From assembly GCA_965602015.1 (NCBI GenBank), contig OZ271918.1, positions 3,232,001-3,296,000 of the forward strand: DNA of 64,000 nucleotides, in the 5' to 3' direction. The DNA comes from Salinispira sp. Lineage in GTDB: Bacteria; Spirochaetota; Spirochaetia; DSM-27196; Salinispiraceae. This document shows positions 16,520 to 61,597 of this stretch, piece by piece. A program made the translations under genes and the position numbers. Each line of letters opens with the position of its first letter. Position 1 is the stretch's first letter. The notes under the pieces are model-generated. The model ran no database searches. It was not told the origin of the DNA and saw nothing but the letters and a program-made list of their open reading frames with translations.

Positions 16520-17839
16520 TCAAAAGGTTTTTCGAAGAAAGCCGGACAAATCCTCCAGACGGTTGCCGATTATTACCGATTGTTTCTCGAGATTCATCAT
16601 CCTGGCCAGGCGCTCGGGCATTTCCGGTTCGCCGCCGCCGGCCTGCCTGGCCACTTCGGTGAACTTGGCTGGATGGGCGGTAGCCAGGGTGCAGATCTGC
16701 CCCTCGCCGGCAAGCTCGTTCCGGGAAAACCCCTCCGAAACCAGAACCCCGGTGGCGGTGTGGGGGCAGAGAAACATGCCCTTTTCTCTCCGGTAGCGTC
16801 CCATGGTTTCGAGAATTTCGTCATCGGTGACCGCCCTGCCGGAGATCATCATGCGCATCCTGGCGGCATCCGAGTGGAAAATCGCCATGAGACGCTCGAA
16901 ATTGCTGGGGTTTCCCACATCCATGGCATTCGCATGGGTGTGGACCGAGGGGCGGGGAATAAACTCTCCGCTGCTCAAATACTGCGGGATTACATCATTG
17001 GCGTTGGTCGCCGCAATATAACCGGTTACCGGAAGACCCCATCTCCAGGCGAAAACGCCGGCAGTGAGGTTGCCGAAATTGCCGCTGGGGACGGTGAAGT
17101 AAAAATCCCCGTCGCTGCGATGCTTGAGCCTGGCAAAGGCGTATACGTAATAGAAACTCTGGGGAAGCAGCCTACCCAGATTTATGCTGTTTGCGCTGGT
17201 GAGGGGAAGGTCCCTGCTGAGCTCCGGGTCGGTAAACGCTTCCTTTACCATCCGCTGACAGTCATCAAAGCTTCCCTTCACCTCGAGAGCATGAATGTTC
17301 CCGCCGAGGGTGGTCAGCTGCTTTTCCTGGCTGGGGCTGACCCGGCCTGAAGGATACAGAATTACCACATCAATGTTATTTTTCTGATAAAAGGCCTGTG
17401 CGACCGCCGAACCCGTATCGCCGCTGGTGGCCGTGAGGATGATAGCCCGACGGTCCCGCCCGGCGAGAAAAAATTCCATGACTGTAGCCAGATATGAGGC
17501 TCCGAAATCCTTGAAGGCGCAGCTCGGGCCGTGAAACAGTTCCAAGATTGAGATGTCTTTGCTCACTTGAGAAATCTCCGGACGGAATACAAATGCCTTT
17601 TCTGCGATGCGTCGGGCATCTTCGCCGCTCATTTCATCGGCAAAGAGGCTGGCGCTGAGCTGGGCTGCCATTGAGGTGAAATCCGTGCCTTCGTCGAAGG
17701 AGAGAATCAGGTCGCGTAGATCCGGCTCGTCAAGCGGATGGTATAATCCCCCGTCCGGGGCGAGGCCCTGAAAAACCGCCTCTTCAAAACTGACCTGGTC
17801 GGAAGGTGAACCCGAGGACCGGGTAGATGCGAATTTCAT
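16520..17839 (-). CDS. thrC: Threonine synthase
   Basis: GLAPDGGLY, ELFHGPSCAFKDFG, ATSGDTG, SANSINLGRL, VPSGNFGN, TAHPAKF. Confidence 0.97.
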   Translation of the reverse strand: MKFASTRSSGSPSDQVSFEEAVFQGLAPDGGLYHPLDEPDLRDLILSFDEGTDFTSMAAQLSASLFADEMSGEDARRIAEKAFVFRPEISQVSKDISILELFHGPSCAFKDFGASYLATVMEFFLAGRDRRAIILTATSGDTGSAVAQAFYQKNNIDVVILYPSGRVSPSQEKQLTTLGGNIHALEVKGSFDDCQRMVKEAFTDPELSRDLPLTSANSINLGRLLPQSFYYVYAFARLKHRSDGDFYFTVPSGNFGNLTAGVFAWRWGLPVTGYIAATNANDVIPQYLSSGEFIPRPSVHTHANAMDVGNPSNFERLMAIFHSDAARMRMMISGRAVTDDEILETMGRYRREKGMFLCPHTATGVLVSEGFSRNELAGEGQICTLATAHPAKFTEVARQAGGGEPEMPERLARMMNLEKQSVIIGNRLEDLSGFLRKTF

Positions 17840-53306: not shown

Positions 53307-54761
53307 ATGGCAGAGAAAATAACTCCTCGAGAAGAAAACTATTCGGACTGGTATATCGATATCGTCACCCAGGCAAAACTCGCGGACTACAGTCCCGTTC
53401 GGGGCTCAATGGTCATAAGGCCCCGGGGTTACGCGATCTGGGAAAAGGTGCAGTCCAGCCTGGACCGGATGTTCAAGGAGACCGGGCATCAAAACGCCTA
53501 TTTCCCCCTCCTGATCCCCGAGGAGTTCATGCGCCGGGAAGCCGAGCACGTCGAGGGCTTCGCCCCCGAGCTCGCCGTCGTTACCCATGGCGGCGGTCAG
53601 GAGCTCGAGGAGCCGCTGGTAATCCGGCCCACTTCGGAAACCATCATCTGGAGCATGTACAATAAGTGGATCCAATCCTACCGCGACCTGCCGCTTTTAA
53701 TAAACCAATGGGCCAACGTGATGCGCTGGGAAAAGCGGACCAGACTGTTTCTCCGCACCAGCGAGTTCCTCTGGCAGGAGGGGCATACGGCCCACGCCAG
53801 CGCCGAGGAAGCTGAAAACGAAACCAAAACCATGCTCGAGGTGTACAAAACCTTTGCCGAAGAGTACATGGCCCTTCCGGTTCTCACGGGAGTAAAAAGC
53901 GAAAGCGAGAAATTCGCCGGAGCTGTCGCCACCTATGCCATTGAAGCGATGATGCAGGACGGCAAAGCCCTGCAGGCGGGAACCAGCCATTTCCTCGGAC
54001 AGAATTTCGCCAAGGCCTTCGACGTTACCTTTCAGAATAAAGAGGGAAAGCTCGACCACGTGTGGGCCTCCAGTTGGGGAGTATCTACCAGGCTGATAGG
54101 CGCGCTGATAATGGCTCACTCGGATGACAGCGGGCTCATCCTTCCTCCCAAACTCGCCCCCACCCAGGTTGTCGTGGTTCCCATCTACCGGAACAAGACC
54201 AAAGATGAGGTGATGGACTACAGCGACAAGATTTACGGCGAAATAAAAGAACGTCTCGGAGGACTTCCCCAGACCGTTCAAATGGACACCGATGAGCAAA
54301 ATTCTCCGGGCTGGAAATTCGCCGAGTATGAAATGATCGGCATACCGATCCGCATCGAAATCGGCCCGAGAGACATGGAAAACCGGAAGGTCATGCTGGT
54401 ACGCCGGGATACAAAAGAAAAAATTCTCATGGATGCCGAGAAGGTGGCTGACGCAATTCCCGGCATACTGGAAGATATCCAAAAAGGCCTGTACGAGCGG
54501 GCTAAAAAATTCCGTGACGACAACACGCGAACCGCCTCCAGCTACGAAGAATTCGTTGAAATATTTTCCGGAGACGGCGGCGCCGGCTTCGTCATCGCTC
54601 CCTGGAACGGCAGTCCGGAGGTCGAAGCGAAAATCAAAGCTGAAACCAAGGCGACCATCCGGGTTCTTCCCTTCGGAAACGAGGATGAGGCCCGGGGGAA
54701 GACCTGTATTTTCTCCGGAGAAAGTGCTCGCCACATGGCGGTATTCGCACGGGCATATTAA
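53307..54761 (+). CDS. proS: Proline--tRNA ligase (archaeal/eukaryotic-type)
   Basis: [53 protein letters not shown]-terminal FARAY. Confidence 0.97.
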
Positions 54762-54770
54762 GAGGAAGCC

Positions 54771-55256
54771 ATGAAAAACTGTCCGTGCGGAAGCGGCAAA
54801 CCCTTTGCCCCGTGCTGCCAGCCTTTTCTGGACGGCAGCGCCGAGGCTCCCAGCGCCGAAGCCCTTATGAGATCCCGGTACAGCGCATATGTCCGGAACA
54901 ACATTGATTACATAATTAAGACCCACAACCCCGACACCCGGGACGGTCTCGATGTGGAGGCAACCAGGACCTGGGCTGAAGAATCCGAATGGCGCGGGCT
55001 GGAGATAATTCGCTGCGAGGACGGCTCAGAGGGCGACGAAACCGGACTTGTTGAGTTCAAGGCCTCCTACCTGCAAAACGGCGAAGAGCTGCGGCACCAC
55101 GAAGTCAGTTATTTCAAACGGGTCGGCGGGTCCTGGTTTTTCGATGAGGGATACCCGGCGCGTGATACCTACGTCAGGAAAGAACCAAAAATCGGAAGAA
55201 ACGATCCCTGCCCCTGCGGCAGCGGTAAAAAATATAAAAAATGCTGCGGAAGGTAA
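54771..55256 (+). CDS. YchJ family (UPF0225) protein with SEC-C motifs at both ends
   Basis: CPCGSGK...[39 protein letters not shown]. Confidence 0.92.
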
Positions 55257-56314
55257 GTGTAGCGGTCGTTCTGTTCCTGTTTGCCTCCGGCTTTGTGGTA
55301 AACGCCTCCGGTGGCCGGGAAATAGCCGTGGGCATAGGTTTCGCCGACTACATCTTTCCATCAGCCCAGGACGGGAAGGTCAGAGCCTTCGCGACTGACA
55401 TGGTATTTACCGATCAGCCCAGTGAATTTGTGTATCAGACCCGCAATGGCAGCATTGTTACCCGCAAGATTTATTACCTGCATTCGAGAACCATCACCAC
55501 CGAAACCTGGGATATTTCCGGCTCGCACATACGCTTAACCGGCCTGCAGCAACAGGTGTATCTGGATGATAAGCCGGTAATAGCCGAAGTGGAGTTCCCG
55601 GATAACGGATTAATCCACAACATGTCGATGACCTTCATGGGCATCGGAGATCAGACGGGCCGGCCGGTGTACGCCGAAGAGGAACGGGTAATCAGCCTGG
55701 AGGAATCGTATTTTCACAACGAACAGGGCGATGTGCAAAGCGGCATAGTAATTGAGACCGCAGGCTCATACCGGGGCCCGGAGTTTGATTGGGAATCTGT
55801 GGCGATGGAATCGTTTTACCAGTACATTCTCGGTCTCGGCCTGGTGTATTCAAGCAACATCGACGAAGACGGTTGGGGCCGCAGTATACGTTACCAGGAC
55901 AGCATGAGTCTCGGGGAGTTCATGGAGATATGGACCGGCCGACGGGATCCCGGTGGCAAACGTGAATCCGGCGATGCGGATCTTATCCGGGTGTACATTC
56001 CCGCCAAATGGAACGACTGGTCCACTGTAGACGAAATGACTCAGGTTTCCGAGAATCTGTATTCCTTCAGGAAATGGTTTTTGCCCGATCGGACATACGA
56101 GTTCAGATTTTGGGACGGAAGCTGGCAGAGCACATATAATCTTACTGTCTCTCCCGACAATCACGCTGCAGATATTATTACGGGGTTCCCGGGCTATGCG
56201 TACGGAAATATTCCGCTCAAGGTACCGGTTGCAGGATACTACCGGATACTCTATCAACGGGAAGAGGGCATATACTGGATTGAAGGGCCTCTCACCCGGA
56301 ATTCCCCTCAGTAA
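55241..56314 (+). CDS. Hypothetical secreted protein with C-terminal putative carbohydrate-binding module
   Basis: Signal peptide; C-terminal [10 protein letters not shown]...M...Y...TYEFRF...W...GNI......GYY pattern. Confidence 0.65.
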
Positions 56315-56411
56315 CGCCCACACACACTCTCTTACCTCGCCGCGGTTTTCTTTTGTGCCGGATTTTGCTATTTTATTTAGTATACTAAATATTTTCAAAA
56401 CTGGAGCCACC

Positions 56412-57755
56412 ATGAAATCATCCGGAAGAACACCGCTGCTGCGAGCAAAAAAGATTGAGTCGATGTTCGGGCTCGGCGAAGTATACCTTAAGTTGGAAGG
56501 TGCAAATCCGCACGGTCATAAGTTCGACCGCATCGGGGAAACTATCGTCCGGGATGCCCTGGCCGGCGGTTTCTCGTCAATCATCGCCGACGGCCCTCGC
56601 CGGTATCTGCACTGTCTGAAGCAATTCGCCGATGAACGGGAAATCGGGCTGCTCGTGCCCCTCTTTCCAAACCAGGCGTGGAAGCGCCAGGATTTCGCAG
56701 AGAATGAGCTCATAGACCTCAAGCGCACAGGCTCTGAAGACAGGGTCGGGGCAATCGAAAGAATATGCACAGAACGAAACTGCTATAACGGTGCGACGGG
56801 TTACCATAATTCTCACCTATCTATCCTCGCACTCGAAGAAATCGGCGAAGAACTGGTTGAGCGACTCGACGACATTACCACCGTATTCGCCCAGCTGAGC
56901 TACGGCTACACGGTATCGAGCCTTTACAACTCCTTTTTCCGCGGATGGACACGGGGAGAATTGGATCGGTATCCGAAAATTTATTCCTGCACGATTCCCA
57001 AAGGAAACCGCATTTATGAGGACTACAAGAAGCAAAACGGAATTGACGGGATCGATGATTACGAAATCAAACTCAATAAATACACCAAAGAACTGTACAT
57101 CGAGAACACTCAGCTTCTTGAGGATTCGCTGGGGGCCATACGAGATACTAACGGGCAAATTGTCAGCATAGATGAGAAGACTCTAAAAGAAGCATCGAAC
57201 GACCTTCGAAAAAGCGAGATGCTCAGCGTCTCGGCGGAGGAATGCTACGGCTTCGCCGGATTTTACAAACTTGCCAAGGAGGGCAGGCTCGAAAAAGGAA
57301 GGCATGTGGTAATCCTCAACGACGGACGGGCCGACATCGATATCCAACGGATTGAGGATTTTTCAGAACATTCGTCGGAGGAACTGCTCGCCTTTGTCGA
57401 TACCTTTCTCCAGCAATACGGCGACCCGGAACATGAAATGCGCGACGCCATTGCTCACGCGGTTTCCCGGGGTGCAATATTTTTGGCTAAAATGAACGGA
57501 GAAATCCAGGGGATCACCGTTGTTGTCCATACGGGGTTTGAAGAGTTTCTCCCAAAATACCACCTGGCGTATATTGGTACTAAACCCGGCCGGAAAGGAC
57601 GGGGAATTGCCAGCAGCCTCATAGAACAGGTTATTGCCTTCACCGAGGGCAACGTGTCATTACACGTAGATCTGGATAATTCCCGGGCTCGAAAGCTGTA
57701 TGAAAAATTCGGATTCAAGACAAAGTACTTCAGAATGATGTATGCCGGAGGGTAA
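56412..57755 (+). CDS. Degenerate PLP fold-type-II (threonine-synthase-like) domain fused to a GNAT acetyltransferase
   Basis: GRTPLLRA...VYLKLEGANPHGHKFDR; C-terminal LAYIGTKPGRKGRGIA and DNSRARKLYEKFGF. Confidence 0.85.
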   Translation: MKSSGRTPLLRAKKIESMFGLGEVYLKLEGANPHGHKFDRIGETIVRDALAGGFSSIIADGPRRYLHCLKQFADEREIGLLVPLFPNQAWKRQDFAENELIDLKRTGSEDRVGAIERICTERNCYNGATGYHNSHLSILALEEIGEELVERLDDITTVFAQLSYGYTVSSLYNSFFRGWTRGELDRYPKIYSCTIPKGNRIYEDYKKQNGIDGIDDYEIKLNKYTKELYIENTQLLEDSLGAIRDTNGQIVSIDEKTLKEASNDLRKSEMLSVSAEECYGFAGFYKLAKEGRLEKGRHVVILNDGRADIDIQRIEDFSEHSSEELLAFVDTFLQQYGDPEHEMRDAIAHAVSRGAIFLAKMNGEIQGITVVVHTGFEEFLPKYHLAYIGTKPGRKGRGIASSLIEQVIAFTEGNVSLHVDLDNSRARKLYEKFGFKTKYFRMMYAGG

Positions 57756-57757
57756 TT

Positions 57758-59431
57758 ATGAACACCCTGACTGATGCCGGGGAGTATCCATGGCAGGAGC
57801 AGATTGAACCCCTCTTTTTACGACTGGTGGCTGTAAAAAGCGATTCAAATACCGCCTTCGAAGGCATTATCGAGGAACTAATTCTAAGCTGGTTAAAAGG
57901 CCGGAAGTACTTCACCGAACATCCCGCACACACGGGTTCTGCCCCACTGCAGGGAGATATGCACAACCGAAGGGTTCTATGGGGATTGGTGAAGGGCCGG
58001 GGGGCTAAAACCGTCGTGCTGATACATCATCACGATACCGTCGACACGGCGGATTACGGAAAATTACGGGACCTGGCCCTCCGCCCGGATGAGCTTGCTG
58101 CTGCCCTCTCTCAACGGCGGCTTCAGCCGGCTGTCCGCGCCGACCTGGAGTCCGGCAGATGGTTATTCGGCAGGGGAACCGCGGACATGAAAGCCGGAGC
58201 CGCAATTCAGCTCGCAGCCCTGGACAGATTTTCCCAGGAGTCCGAACCGGAGGGAAATTTGCTGGTGCTCAGCGTTCCCGATGAGGAGTCCCTTTCAAGG
58301 GGCATGCTCGAGGCGGTAAGGCTTATGGATGACCTTCGGAAAGAACACGGCCTGGAGTATATCCTGACGGTAAATTCCGAACCCTATTTCAACCAGGTGC
58401 GCGGCAAGGCAATCCTCTTCGAGGGATCGGTGGGAAAAGTTATGCCCATTGTCTATGTCCGTGGAGTCAAAAGTCATGTTGGGGACCCCTATGCGGGAAT
58501 TAATCCCTCCCTCATTCTGGCTAATATTCAGAGGCTCACGGAGCTCAATACCGAATTGTGCGATGTTTCAGACACCGACGCCACTCCCCCGCCGGTGTGG
58601 GTGAATCTCAAGGATCGGAAAAAAGCCTACGATGCCTCTATTCCGGAGGCCGCAACGGGATACTTCAACTGGCTCACCTTCAACAAAACTCCTGCTGATA
58701 TCATCGAGATTATGATGGACCTTTCTTCAAGGGCTCTGAACGAAACCCTGTCCCATCACTCGGCTTCTTACCGCACGTTCTGCGAAATGACCGGGGACAA
58801 ACCTGACCTGGCGGATTTCGAGCCGCTGGTGTTGGATTTTGCCACCCTGTTTGCCCGGGCCCGGGAGCATGCCGGCAATGGTTTTTCCGAAGAGTACCGG
58901 TCCCTTGAGCAGTCGGTCGCAGACATGGTGGACCGGTCCCAGATTACGCTCCCTGAGGCAGCTATCAGACTACTGGAGTTCTGTGCAGAGGCGTCAGACC
59001 TTCAGGGGCCCGCCGTGGTCATCGGGCTGTCCGGCCCCTATTACCCTCATGTGGCAAACGCGAATCTGCCCGATGGATCCAGATATGATTTGCACAGACG
59101 TGTTGATGAGATGAGCAGACAGCTTTATGGAGTCAGCTATGAGTCCCGAAAATACTTTATGGGGATTTCCGACACTTCGTATGCATCATGGACCGGAGAT
59201 GACGAATCGACCAATGCCGTAAAGGAGAACAGTCCGGGTTGGGGCGGCATTTATCGAATTCCGTTTGCCTCACTGAAAAAACTGAATTCCCCGGTTCTCA
59301 ACCTTGGTCCATGGGGAAAGGATCTCCACAAACCCACGGAAAGGGTATTCGCCCCCGATGTGTATAATCGGGTACCGGAAATCCTCTATAGACTCATCGC
59401 GGATATCCTGGGAGAAACCGGCCCTTCATGA
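57758..59431 (+). CDS. RocB-like M20/M25/M40 metallo-amidohydrolase
   Basis: HHHDTV, GRGTADMKAG, VPDEES, NSEP, GSVGKVMP, GISDTSY, GPWGKDLHKPTER. Confidence 0.88.
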   Translation: MNTLTDAGEYPWQEQIEPLFLRLVAVKSDSNTAFEGIIEELILSWLKGRKYFTEHPAHTGSAPLQGDMHNRRVLWGLVKGRGAKTVVLIHHHDTVDTADYGKLRDLALRPDELAAALSQRRLQPAVRADLESGRWLFGRGTADMKAGAAIQLAALDRFSQESEPEGNLLVLSVPDEESLSRGMLEAVRLMDDLRKEHGLEYILTVNSEPYFNQVRGKAILFEGSVGKVMPIVYVRGVKSHVGDPYAGINPSLILANIQRLTELNTELCDVSDTDATPPPVWVNLKDRKKAYDASIPEAATGYFNWLTFNKTPADIIEIMMDLSSRALNETLSHHSASYRTFCEMTGDKPDLADFEPLVLDFATLFARAREHAGNGFSEEYRSLEQSVADMVDRSQITLPEAAIRLLEFCAEASDLQGPAVVIGLSGPYYPHVANANLPDGSRYDLHRRVDEMSRQLYGVSYESRKYFMGISDTSYASWTGDDESTNAVKENSPGWGGIYRIPFASLKKLNSPVLNLGPWGKDLHKPTERVFAPDVYNRVPEILYRLIADILGETGPS

Positions 59432-59566
59432 CCTGCGGCGCCTGATGTGAAGCAAACGCGTGACCAGCGGCGGTCCTCGAAACGAAGACCTGTTCACTCA
59501 ATGGGGATTTTCCCCAAGGGCAGGAAGGCGCTGGTTTTTTATTAGGCTGATGTTATACTTCTTAGT

Positions 59567-60301
59567 ATGAAAACCGGCATCGCCGCTTTAGCGCTACTAT
59601 TCGCCCTCGCCGTTCCCTTTAGCGGTTTTGCACAGGAAGATCAGCCCCAAGAGGATGTTCCCGGCTCACCGGCCGCCGCGGTCGAATTCACTCTACAATT
59701 GCGAAGCGGCTTACATTGGCAGGGCCAGAGCGAGGGCACCACCGGAGATCCGGAAAGCGGCGATTTTCCCAACGGCATATCGACAAGTCAGTGGTTTAAC
59801 CACGGAGGCGTGGGGCTGATAATCGGAATACAGCCCTTTCTGAATTTTTCACCGTCGCTTGATTTTTACGTGGATGAATACATCTTTCTGGAAGAGTATG
59901 GCAGAGCCTTTATTACTCAGGCGCAGACCGGGAGCAGTCTCGGGCCATTGGCGACGGTTCTGGTGGTTCAGCTCAATCTCCCCTGGATGATGCGCCTTCC
60001 GCTCAGTGAAAATGCCGGCTTTGACTTTGCGGCCGGCATCAATATAAATCTTCGTATTCCGGCCTTTGCCCTCGACGGAACCAGCGACACCGGACCAATC
60101 GCTTCCTATCTGCTGGGCGGCGGGCGCTTCTTGAATTTGTACCTGGAGCCGGGGTTTTCCTTCGGCCTCTCCGAGTCCATCGGGTTCAGCCTGGCTGTCC
60201 GCAGCCTATTGCCGGTCTGGCAGCTCTGGGACCCCGCCGGTTCACCGTTCTGGGACAGTCTGTACGCCGGCCTTGTGCTGGGAATTACATTTAATCTTTA
60301 G
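59567..60301 (+). CDS. Putative outer-membrane beta-barrel protein
   Basis: Signal peptide ending GFA-Q; alternating amphipathic strands; C-terminal YAGLVLGITFNL. Confidence 0.6.
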   Translation: MKTGIAALALLFALAVPFSGFAQEDQPQEDVPGSPAAAVEFTLQLRSGLHWQGQSEGTTGDPESGDFPNGISTSQWFNHGGVGLIIGIQPFLNFSPSLDFYVDEYIFLEEYGRAFITQAQTGSSLGPLATVLVVQLNLPWMMRLPLSENAGFDFAAGININLRIPAFALDGTSDTGPIASYLLGGGRFLNLYLEPGFSFGLSESIGFSLAVRSLLPVWQLWDPAGSPFWDSLYAGLVLGITFNL

Positions 60302-60358
60302 CCTGCAGCCCCGTGCATCCAGATCCGAGCCTCGGCCATCAGCCGAAAGAAGAGAACA

Positions 60359-61597
60359 CTAGTTTCGCATTTCGCGTACCGAGGCATTCTCAATCAGCGA
60401 TTCGTGATCTGCTACGAGCTGGGTATTCATCAGCACGACCATGACATCCAGTAACACCGCAATTGAAGTGAGAATAGGGGCAATAGGCAGAAGAATGAGG
60501 AAGCCCTCCTCCAGTCCCTGCCCATACCAGGTAGAAATTACCGAAAGGCTGACCACCATGGCGTTGCCCGGAACCGTGCCGAGCATAAAACTAATGAGGA
60601 TGCTGCTACCCATAATCCACAGATATTGAAGCAGGGATATATCGAGACTGGAATATGATCTGAGTATGAGAATAAAACTGATGGTGGTGACCAACGCGGT
60701 TCCGCTGCGGCTGAATATCGCTCCGAGGGGCATGGCGGAATAGCTCGCTTTCCGGTTGATCCTCATATTCTCACCGGCAACACCTATTGCTGAACCCAGG
60801 GTGTAATACATATCCCCGGAAAGCAGGGACGATAGGGCGGTCGGCATGGCAGAGAACAGCCAGGCGTAGGGGTTGCGCTTTCTGTCGCCCAGCAAAAACA
60901 CAATCCCCGGCAGCAACGCGAAAATCACGAACAGCGCCGCCCCCAACACAACAAGCAGAAGCTGACTGAACAGTTCGAGGTCTGCCATGCCCCTCAGCTG
61001 GGTGGTCCGATAGGCGGTCATAAAAAAGATTCCCACACTCAGAATCTCAAGCATAATGCGGTTCATTGAGAAAACTACCCGGGACAGGCTCTCGAAAATA
61101 TCGACAACAGGTGCGGAAATCGATCGGTTATACAGGAGTCCCAGGCCCAGGAGAATGGCAAAAATAAAGACCGGCAGAAGAAAATCGCCGCTGTTGCTGA
61201 AAATTGAAAACAGGTTTTTCGGGAAAACCTGAGTGAGCTGCTCTCCAAAACCCGGGAGATTCCGCACCTCGGTTTCCTCGATAATTATGGGCACCCTTTC
61301 AGGTGAAAAAACAGCGACAAAAACCGCCGCAATAACGCTGGCCGCGCCGGCAGACAGCATGGAATACCCCATCATCCGTCCGTACAGCGGGAGAAATTTT
61401 TTCTCCATCCACAATTCGTAACTGCTAATTACCAGCCCGAAAAAAACCAGGGGGAATACCAGGTAGCGTCCGATGTGCAATACATAATTGTTAACTGTGA
61501 CAAAAAAGACTTCGGTATCGCCGCCGTTCAACGGGAGAAAAAGACCAAGAATTGCACCGAGGGAGGCGCCGATGAGATATTTAAGCCAAAGTTTCAT
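60359..61597 (-). CDS. Dicarboxylate/amino acid:cation symporter (DAACS) family, divergent
   Basis: LVFPLVFFGL, FPKNLF, PLGAIFSRSGTA, GTVPG motifs; multiple TM. Confidence 0.8.
   Translation of the reverse strand: MKLWLKYLIGASLGAILGLFLPLNGGDTEVFFVTVNNYVLHIGRYLVFPLVFFGLVISSYELWMEKKFLPLYGRMMGYSMLSAGAASVIAAVFVAVFSPERVPIIIEETEVRNLPGFGEQLTQVFPKNLFSIFSNSGDFLLPVFIFAILLGLGLLYNRSISAPVVDIFESLSRVVFSMNRIMLEILSVGIFFMTAYRTTQLRGMADLELFSQLLLVVLGAALFVIFALLPGIVFLLGDRKRNPYAWLFSAMPTALSSLLSGDMYYTLGSAIGVAGENMRINRKASYSAMPLGAIFSRSGTALVTTISFILILRSYSSLDISLLQYLWIMGSSILISFMLGTVPGNAMVVSLSVISTWYGQGLEEGFLILLPIAPILTSIAVLLDVMVVLMNTQLVADHESLIENASVREMRN

Follow-up and report, generated by a model that had tools for sequence, protein, structure and literature searches.

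A fusion of a threonine-synthase-like domain without its PLP site to a GNAT acetyltransferase, and a RocB-like M20 subclade linked to this fusion at the genome level

Here we describe two adjacent genes in a 64,000-nucleotide stretch of a Salinispira sp. genome (assembly GCA_965602015.1, contig OZ271918.1, positions 3,232,001 to 3,296,000 of the forward strand; this whole stretch is called the window below). Gene 1 encodes a threonine-synthase-like fold-type II domain, which has lost its pyridoxal 5'-phosphate (PLP) site, joined to a GNAT acetyltransferase domain, and gene 2 encodes a RocB-like M20 metallohydrolase whose close relatives occur, with few exceptions, in genomes that carry the fusion (Table 1). 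The open reading frames (ORFs) from which the original prediction started are real, and the two genes lie on the same strand as close together as it reported. A Shine-Dalgarno-like site precedes each of them, and the layout of their junction suggests that they may be translationally coupled. Homologues of gene 1 begin at the ATG at 56412; an alternative upstream start at 56196 would overlap the previous gene.

Table 1. Features at the locus, in window positions.
Feature	Positions	Strand	Evidence or remark
Gene 1 ORF	56412-57755	+	447 aa
Threonine-synthase-like fold-type II domain (residues 1-305)	56412..57326	+	Pfam PALP, PRK06381 profile, model fold
K37-F38: Phe at the Schiff-base lysine position, Lys one residue earlier	56520..56525	+	Family alignment
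GNAT domain (residues 306-447)	57327..57755	+	Pfam; 97% or more conservation in 250 rows; fold matches Z 14-16
Gene 2 ORF	57758-59431	+	557 aa; 2 nt after gene 1
Gene 2, RocB/COG4187-like M20 metallohydrolase	57758..59431	+	Pfam Peptidase_M20, source names, homology, model
Shine-Dalgarno-like GGAG	56403..56406	+	5 nt before gene 1 ATG; read from sequence
Junction of gene 1 and gene 2	57747..57757	+	GGAGG lies within the end of gene 1, followed by its stop codon and a gap of 2 nt
Block of YchJ/SEC-C gene, 357-aa gene, gene 1 and gene 2	54771..59431	+	Between proS and a 244-aa gene

The Pfam matches of gene 1 to PALP (PF00291, E 7.5e-15) and GNAT (PF00583, E 2.7e-12; 47.4 bits against a cut-off of 20.7) agree with the predicted joining of a fold-II domain to a GNAT. 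In the predicted structure (pLDDT 86.5), the best folds for residues 1-306 are threonine synthases (2d1f, Z 29.9, root-mean-square deviation 2.9, 287 residues aligned; 2zsj, Foldseek E 1.5e-16), and the two-domain arrangement of fold-type II enzymes is present. The nearest profile is PRK06381, which gene 1 matches at 113.2 bits, below the NCBIfam equivalog cut-off of 266. At the Schiff-base lysine of the NP-x-G-x-x-K-D-R motif, gene 1 has F38. Among 250 fusion rows longer than 330 amino acids (not dereplicated), position 38 is Lys in 1, position 37 is Lys in 198 and neither is Lys in 51, compared to Lys at position 38 in 8 of 8 stand-alone PRK06381 parents. In PLP enzymes of this kind the TCGN loop (S/T-x-G-N) serves the substrate and O3', the glycine-rich loop serves the phosphate, and a Ser, Thr or Cys lies at the pyridine nitrogen. 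Gene 1 has ADGPRRY, QLSYGYT and N303 at these places, where all 8 parents have ATCGNY, PVSNGTT and Thr. Thus, the description of the domain as a "pseudo" PLP domain holds for the whole family. We ruled out the shifted lysine K37 as a family-wide catalytic residue from the 51 rows without Lys at either position, although this clade may differ.

One protein, P0273, is the sole row with the canonical lysine and carries an intact PRK06381 domain (299.7 bits, against the same cut-off) joined to this same GNAT; P0275 and P0269 stand between P0273 and the dead-domain family and are partly decayed. This series implies that the fusion arose first and that the PLP site decayed later; judged from the sequence of P0273, the dead domain of gene 1 is a descendant of the PRK06381 family. 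A literature search found no functional study of the PRK06381 "threonine synthase" family. The stand-alone parents precede DUF1611/DgcN-like and epimerase genes, and in Chondrinema lie near an aspartoacylase-family gene. A recurring operon of the spirochaete phylum (L245, L246, L248, L249, L251 and L252) combines an intact PRK06381 enzyme with a DUF1611/DgcN-like gene, which is an 857-aa fusion in four of these loci, a creatininase-like gene and a DgcA-like epimerase gene, often together with glycosyltransferase-like genes.

Conservation is higher in the GNAT domain than in the dead domain (mean pair identity 0.53 versus 0.42 in the 250 rows), and the GNAT holds 23 of the 35 near-invariant positions. 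The acetyl-CoA motifs quoted in the original prediction are present, including the loop K395-G-R-G398-I-A400 with the R/Q-x-x-G-x-G/A pattern, and D338, Y383, H384, Y387, S416-L-H-V419, N423, Y430, Y439, R441 and M442 are conserved in at least 97% of the rows. Single proteins join this GNAT type to MarR, Alr, DUF1611 or a GHMP kinase (P0316, P0320, P0321, P0337, P0345, P0351 and P0372); a first, weak search for long fusions of the stand-alone GNAT had returned none, and these came from a later search. Seven genomes (G434, G446, G457, G469, G480, G491 and G502) each contain two divergent copies of the dead-domain fusion.

Gene 2 keeps every M20 metal ligand (H91, D93, D143, E176, E177, E208 and H524), as had been predicted from its HxD, D, EE, E and H residues, and these ligands are invariant in 108 of 108 rows of its subclade. 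Its predicted structure (pLDDT 93.3) matches the folds of DapE, ArgE and carboxypeptidase G2 (CPG2). The RocB-like identity proposed earlier is upheld by source names and full-length homology: relatives of gene 2 carry the name "arginine utilization protein RocB", and gene 2 is 33% identical over 550 columns, its full length, to a Bacillus RocB-like protein (a comparator other than the strain 168 protein). Membership in RocB/COG4187 is thus assigned from names and homology over about 550 aa rather than from the COG model. Relatives with at least 48% identity to gene 2 form one branch with a support of 100 in an 84-row tree, and 24 diagnostic positions separate this subclade from 87 other rows. 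According to PMC10404663, B. subtilis RocB is a Mn-dependent hydrolase that converts citrulline (N-carbamoyl-ornithine) to ornithine and carbamate; "deacylase" is therefore a putative label for the gene 2 subclade. A rocABC-type operon context was absent both from the neighbours of gene 2 in the window and from the subclade loci. Elsewhere, ornithine racemase genes have distant RocB-like genes, often as tandem copies, at a distance of up to about 6 kb (G432:C22, G444:C9, G455:C2, G478:C3 and G548:C14), which suggests that the family feeds ornithine fermentation.

We searched each genome of three taxon samples (the orders of G323 and G301 and the phylum of G318; 523 genomes) with both proteins. 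The fusion is present in 33 of the 35 genomes that carry the M20 subclade, compared to 82 of the 523 genomes overall, and in 31 of 33 when the centre genomes, which had been chosen for having the fusion, are removed. Each sample shows the pattern. In the order of G323 (251 genomes, 46 with the fusion), 20 of 22 subclade genomes have the fusion, compared to 14 of 96 with distant RocB only and 12 of 133 without RocB. In the order of G301 (191 genomes, 22 with the fusion), the figures are 6 of 6 for the subclade, one of them split over two contigs, and 1 of 23 for genomes with a sister RocB. In the phylum of G318 (81 genomes, 14 with the fusion, one further fragment being left out), all 7 subclade genomes have it. 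Thus, the link between the M20 subclade and the fusion is strong and one-sided at the genome level, and sister RocB genes show none. Fisher values for the association are very small, and they overstate it because related genomes are not independent; the six genomes of the order of G301 may be one family. Mapped on a fusion tree of 78 rows, the subclade label requires 12 changes, 10 of which are forced by well-supported branches, implying that the M20 subclade pairs with many fusion lineages. The label is still clustered on this tree, and some branches are congruent between the fusion and M20 trees.

Adjacency of the two genes is known from about six records in all and was read in DNA at this locus, L058 and L102. 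L072 breaks off at the end of its contig, and a second contig from the same genome, L102, has the end of the GNAT 8 nt before the M20 gene; L203 is the same stretch as L058 and was counted once. Consecutive accessions, which give accession order rather than DNA, imply adjacency in a Spirochaetaceae metagenome-assembled genome (MAG), a Wallbacteria MAG and Fusibacter sp. A1, whose pair lies on other branches of both trees. By the same kind of evidence, the two genes are four accessions apart in Spirochaeta isovalerica. They are spaced by 4.7 kb in G655 (near 9 kb from the start of one to the end of the other) and by about 28 kb in G318. The fusion was absent from all 44 metagenome RocB-like loci; of those placed in the tree, however, a single one falls in the subclade. 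Among relatives of this organism the pair is patchy, the fusion occurring in 2 of 81 near genomes and in 1 of 301 across the phylum.

Relatives of the two gene 1 domains give clues to the substrate. In all 3 loci seen, stand-alone GNAT relatives precede an Orr-like racemase gene, and in 2 they have alr nearby; one comes after a MarR gene that is oriented divergently to a betaine ABC transporter, and in Persicobacter one lies after a sodium/solute symporter gene and directly before a DoeB2-like M20D amidohydrolase gene. Together with the contexts of the PRK06381 relatives, these arrangements point by analogy to amino-acid N-acyl chemistry. Three papers supply precedents, in which a GNAT acetylates free lysine to a compatible solute (ShKAT; PMC9049628), a GNAT acts with a racemase and an M20 enzyme (the NSAR pathway; 10.1101/2022.03.03.481873), and dgcN belongs to a D-amino-acid pathway (PMC12363236). 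The loci in which a stand-alone GNAT and an Orr-like racemase accompany MarR/ProVWX, or alr, or a symporter with the DoeB2-like amidohydrolase (L244:9225-11318, L243:8318-11355 and L283:13577-18811) are possibly an undescribed osmoregulated operon. The idea that GNAT genes fill the slot of ectABC beside MarR/ProVWX was not borne out, as the ectABC genes of the complete sister genome G352 are located elsewhere and MarR in the genome studied here (G000) is followed by an IS-like gene. That IS-like gene, at G000:C1:278233-279877, occupies the position at which G355 carries its stand-alone GNAT and Orr-like genes.

The genome studied here contains clusters that are ornithine- and lysine-fermentation-like, as named by similarity. 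The ornithine fermentation cluster ends with a 641-aa ORF (G000:C1:793198-795123) whose N-terminal part is ornithine-racemase-like and which has a long extension. We found no match to ablB (TIGR03827) in this genome, and a lysine aminomutase in 1 of 98 scanned neighbours of the fusion. There was likewise no ectC match in this genome or in 5 of 5 further genomes that have the pair, just the M20 gene or a stand-alone GNAT; G352, which lacks gene 1 and gene 2, carries an ectoine cluster. Among the named carriers of the fusion are Alkaliphilus, Fusibacter, Oceanirhabdus and clostridia that grow in the cold.

The locus looks inserted in this genome, in that neither gene 1 nor gene 2 was matched in G352 and proS there lies 173 nt upstream of the homologue of the gene at 59567-60301, next to that downstream gene. 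The predicted AT-rich character of the pair proved weak: GC content is 50.4% for gene 1 and 54.4% for gene 2, compared to 53.8% for the genome, which places them at the 9th and 41st percentiles of 1434 long ORFs, and we dropped the notion of an AT-rich island. A separate canonical thrC does exist as predicted; it lies on the minus strand at 16520-17839 and scores 262.6 bits with TIGR00260, whose cut-off is 167.1. Within the block, the 357-aa gene (window 55241-56314) has a signal-peptide-like start and a weak C-terminal match to the carbohydrate-binding family PF16561 (E 0.018), with no other family match. An Rfam search of 54500-61000 gave no match, a promoter and terminator scan gave signal below chance level, and PADLOC assigned 0 families of its anti-phage defence models to either protein.

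The reading that we favor, and to which we give an even chance, is that the fusion is the maker, and the M20 protein an optional recycler, of an N-acetylated free amino acid, probably ornithine or lysine. The GNAT domain of gene 1 would move acetyl from acetyl-CoA onto an amine of the free amino acid, gene 2 would act on the same metabolite and remove the acetyl group again, and the released ornithine or lysine would feed the fermentation that the organism appears able to run. The dead domain may serve as an oligomerization scaffold or a ligand sensor. An N-acetylated basic amino acid is proposed because RocB acts on side-chain-carbamoylated ornithine, and the one-sided distribution fits a maker and a recycler because a recycler is useless without its maker, while a maker can stand alone. 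The original prediction of an acetylation and deacetylation module for an amino-acid-like metabolite survives as the best reading, through the genome-level link, and mostly fails as a two-gene unit. Its osmolyte and ligand-sensor parts have no more than anecdotal support. A compatible-solute role for the gene 1 product is a tentative and fairly doubtful extension, and it is improbable that the whole of a still bolder version holds, in which the fusion is an unrecognized enzyme, widespread among anaerobes from saline, alkaline and cold habitats, that makes an N-acetylated diamino-acid stress solute (e.g., N-delta-acetylornithine) and is switched by a ligand bound to the dead fold, with the RocB subfamily as its dedicated recycler.

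Several observations weigh against this maker and recycler scheme. Fusion matches comprise at least 269 protein clusters and 277 genome stretches, and among the best 80 of these stretches, 67 of which have at least 2 kb of downstream sequence, only one (L058) has a RocB-like gene within the fetched flanks, so that the fusion normally stands as a lone gene. When 98 neighbours were scanned with Pfam (97 of the 131 immediate neighbours listed and one second neighbour), no recurring pathway emerged, and the relevant neighbours were scattered (BCCT, OpuAC, MscS and the lysine aminomutase). These results reject a conserved operon, and the co-occurrence expected by the original prediction holds in one direction between genomes and mostly not as a two-gene locus. 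The reverse dependence fails, as 49 of the 82 fusion genomes lack the subclade and 33 have it; among 50 fusion genomes taken from the matched stretches, 15 have the subclade, 22 distant RocB and 13 neither. The subclade also occurs without a fusion match in G645 and G512, whose completeness is unknown, and in G357, which is 57% complete and has the gene at a contig edge. In four loci of the order of G301 (L138, L142, L313 and L315), the subclade M20 gene ends an oligopeptide-ABC (Opp) operon after two peptidase-like genes, a context that fits scavenging of an imported substrate. Kinship and shared habitat inflate the association between subclade and fusion. In fold, the GNAT domain resembles protein N-terminal acetyltransferases and small-molecule GNATs equally closely, and the ectoine contrast between this genome and G352 is anecdotal, being one genome pair.

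Some of these points are what one would expect if the two genes had no direct link, gene 2 being an ordinary citrulline hydrolase or a peptide-scavenging amidohydrolase of amino-acid fermenters, with co-occurrence reflecting a shared niche and kinship and adjacency stemming from co-transfer in one lineage. The scattered lone genes, the fusion genomes without the subclade, the Opp operons, the partly congruent branches of the two trees and the nearness of distant RocB genes to ornithine racemase in five genomes all favor this view. By contrast, the sister RocB genes of the same samples are unassociated with the fusion (14/96 and 1/23), all three samples show the same pattern, adjacent pairs turn up on separate branches, and 6 of the 7 subclade genomes of the G318 phylum pair with a 30%-identity fusion type that was not co-inherited with the M20 gene. 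We consider the absence of a link rather unlikely. It is quite unlikely that gene 1 is a RimI/Ard1-type acetyltransferase of protein N termini or lysines, with a dead fold that recruits the substrate, and gene 2 an aminoacylase that recycles N-acetyl-amino acids after proteolysis. Residues 307-447 of the model do match NatE, RimI, NatC, Naa50 and Ard1 (Z 14.5-15.6), which also rank high in the profile search, the histidine of the LHV motif, which is conserved, and an acidic residue of the alpha1-alpha2 loop are reminiscent of the N-terminal acetyltransferase pocket described in PMC5390088, and the fusion has a lone-gene habit. The peptide pocket of RimI/Ard1 enzymes lies between the alpha1-alpha2 and beta6-beta7 loops. 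However, these Z values tie with those of small-molecule GNATs (1y9k, Z 15.8), the rimI model TIGR01575 scores 37.2 bits against a cut-off of 86.4, the last two strands are short in the model (435-438 and 441-444), and the stand-alone relatives sit with racemases, transporters and an amidohydrolase.

Those same racemases raise a D-amino-acid route like NSAR or Dgc, in which the GNAT would acylate a D-amino acid such as D-ornithine and the M20 enzyme would release the amino acid after or without racemization. The single fusions to Alr and DUF1611, the DUF1611/DgcN-like and epimerase genes that follow PRK06381 parents, and the GNAT, racemase and M20 precedents (10.1101/2022.03.03.481873; PMC12363236) are consistent with this route. 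We regard it as very doubtful: one query each (E 1e-6) found no DUF1611 or epimerase match in the genome, and no racemase lies beside any fusion examined. Orr is present in 72 of 80 genomes whatever their fusion status (22/22, 24/26 and 26/32), so ornithine racemase is uninformative and does not discriminate. Replacement of ArgA and ArgE, with gene 1 as an N-acetylglutamate synthase (NAGS) that has a dead regulatory domain and gene 2 as an acetylornithine deacetylase, is extremely improbable. It has in its favor the analogy with the architecture of classical ArgA, argH upstream of the fusion in L022 and L051, and a very weak match to a NAGS model (E 0.037). Against it, this genome has argC and argJ, and the fusion carriers G333, G343 and G318 (completeness unknown) have no argC over the cut-off and no argJ match. 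We rejected the role because, in the five genomes considered, the fusion did not co-occur with argC where argJ is lacking.

The fusion family is catalogued under automatic names, and its named members go under threonine synthase or PLP enzyme despite the missing catalytic lysine; we found no paper on it in the open literature, most subscription journals being outside coverage. It offers a rare visible series from an intact PLP enzyme-GNAT fusion to a dead scaffold, and the one-sided dependence gives a directly testable substrate link for a RocB subfamily in a family with one characterized member. Were the product a compatible solute, this would account for salt or cold tolerance in anaerobes that lack genes for ectoine or N-acetyl-beta-lysine, and if the stress-solute reading were true, hundreds of genes annotated as threonine synthase would mark a new solute cycle.

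Gene 2 has the M20 dimetal site and is placed in the family of B. subtilis RocB by source names and its full-length homology to a Bacillus RocB-like protein, but falls in a separate subclade, lies outside a roc operon and tracks the fusion. Gene 1 has PRK06381 as its closest profile and ancestor, but lacks the lysine, both the TCGN and the PVSNGTT loops and Thr 303, and no longer lies in the DUF1611/epimerase operon. The NSAR pathway (GNAT succinyltransferase, racemase and M20 desuccinylase) and the Dgc D-glutamate pathway resemble the pair in having a transferase that puts an acyl group on and a hydrolase that takes it off, and relatives of both gene 1 domains lie beside such genes; they differ in that no acylamino-acid racemase was found in the locus, or in the genome with the queries used, and in that gene 2 belongs to a different M20 subfamily. 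AblB (beta-lysine), ShKAT (N-alpha-lysine) and EctA with DoeB-type deacetylases share GNAT acetylation of a diamino acid and an optional deacetylase, as proposed here for the pair, whereas gene 1 has no AblB model match, no EctA model listed, no conserved abl or ect context and an extra 305-aa dead domain. Classical ArgA consists of an inactive kinase domain and a GNAT, and gene 1 likewise has a dead fold N-terminal to its GNAT, but the fold is a different one and the distribution does not follow arginine biosynthesis. The CysK-CysE complex is a loose precedent, because CysK is an active enzyme there. GNAT-plus-M20 modules and dead-domain-plus-GNAT fusions are known kinds, and the fusion with its M20 partner is a dispersed module more than an operon.

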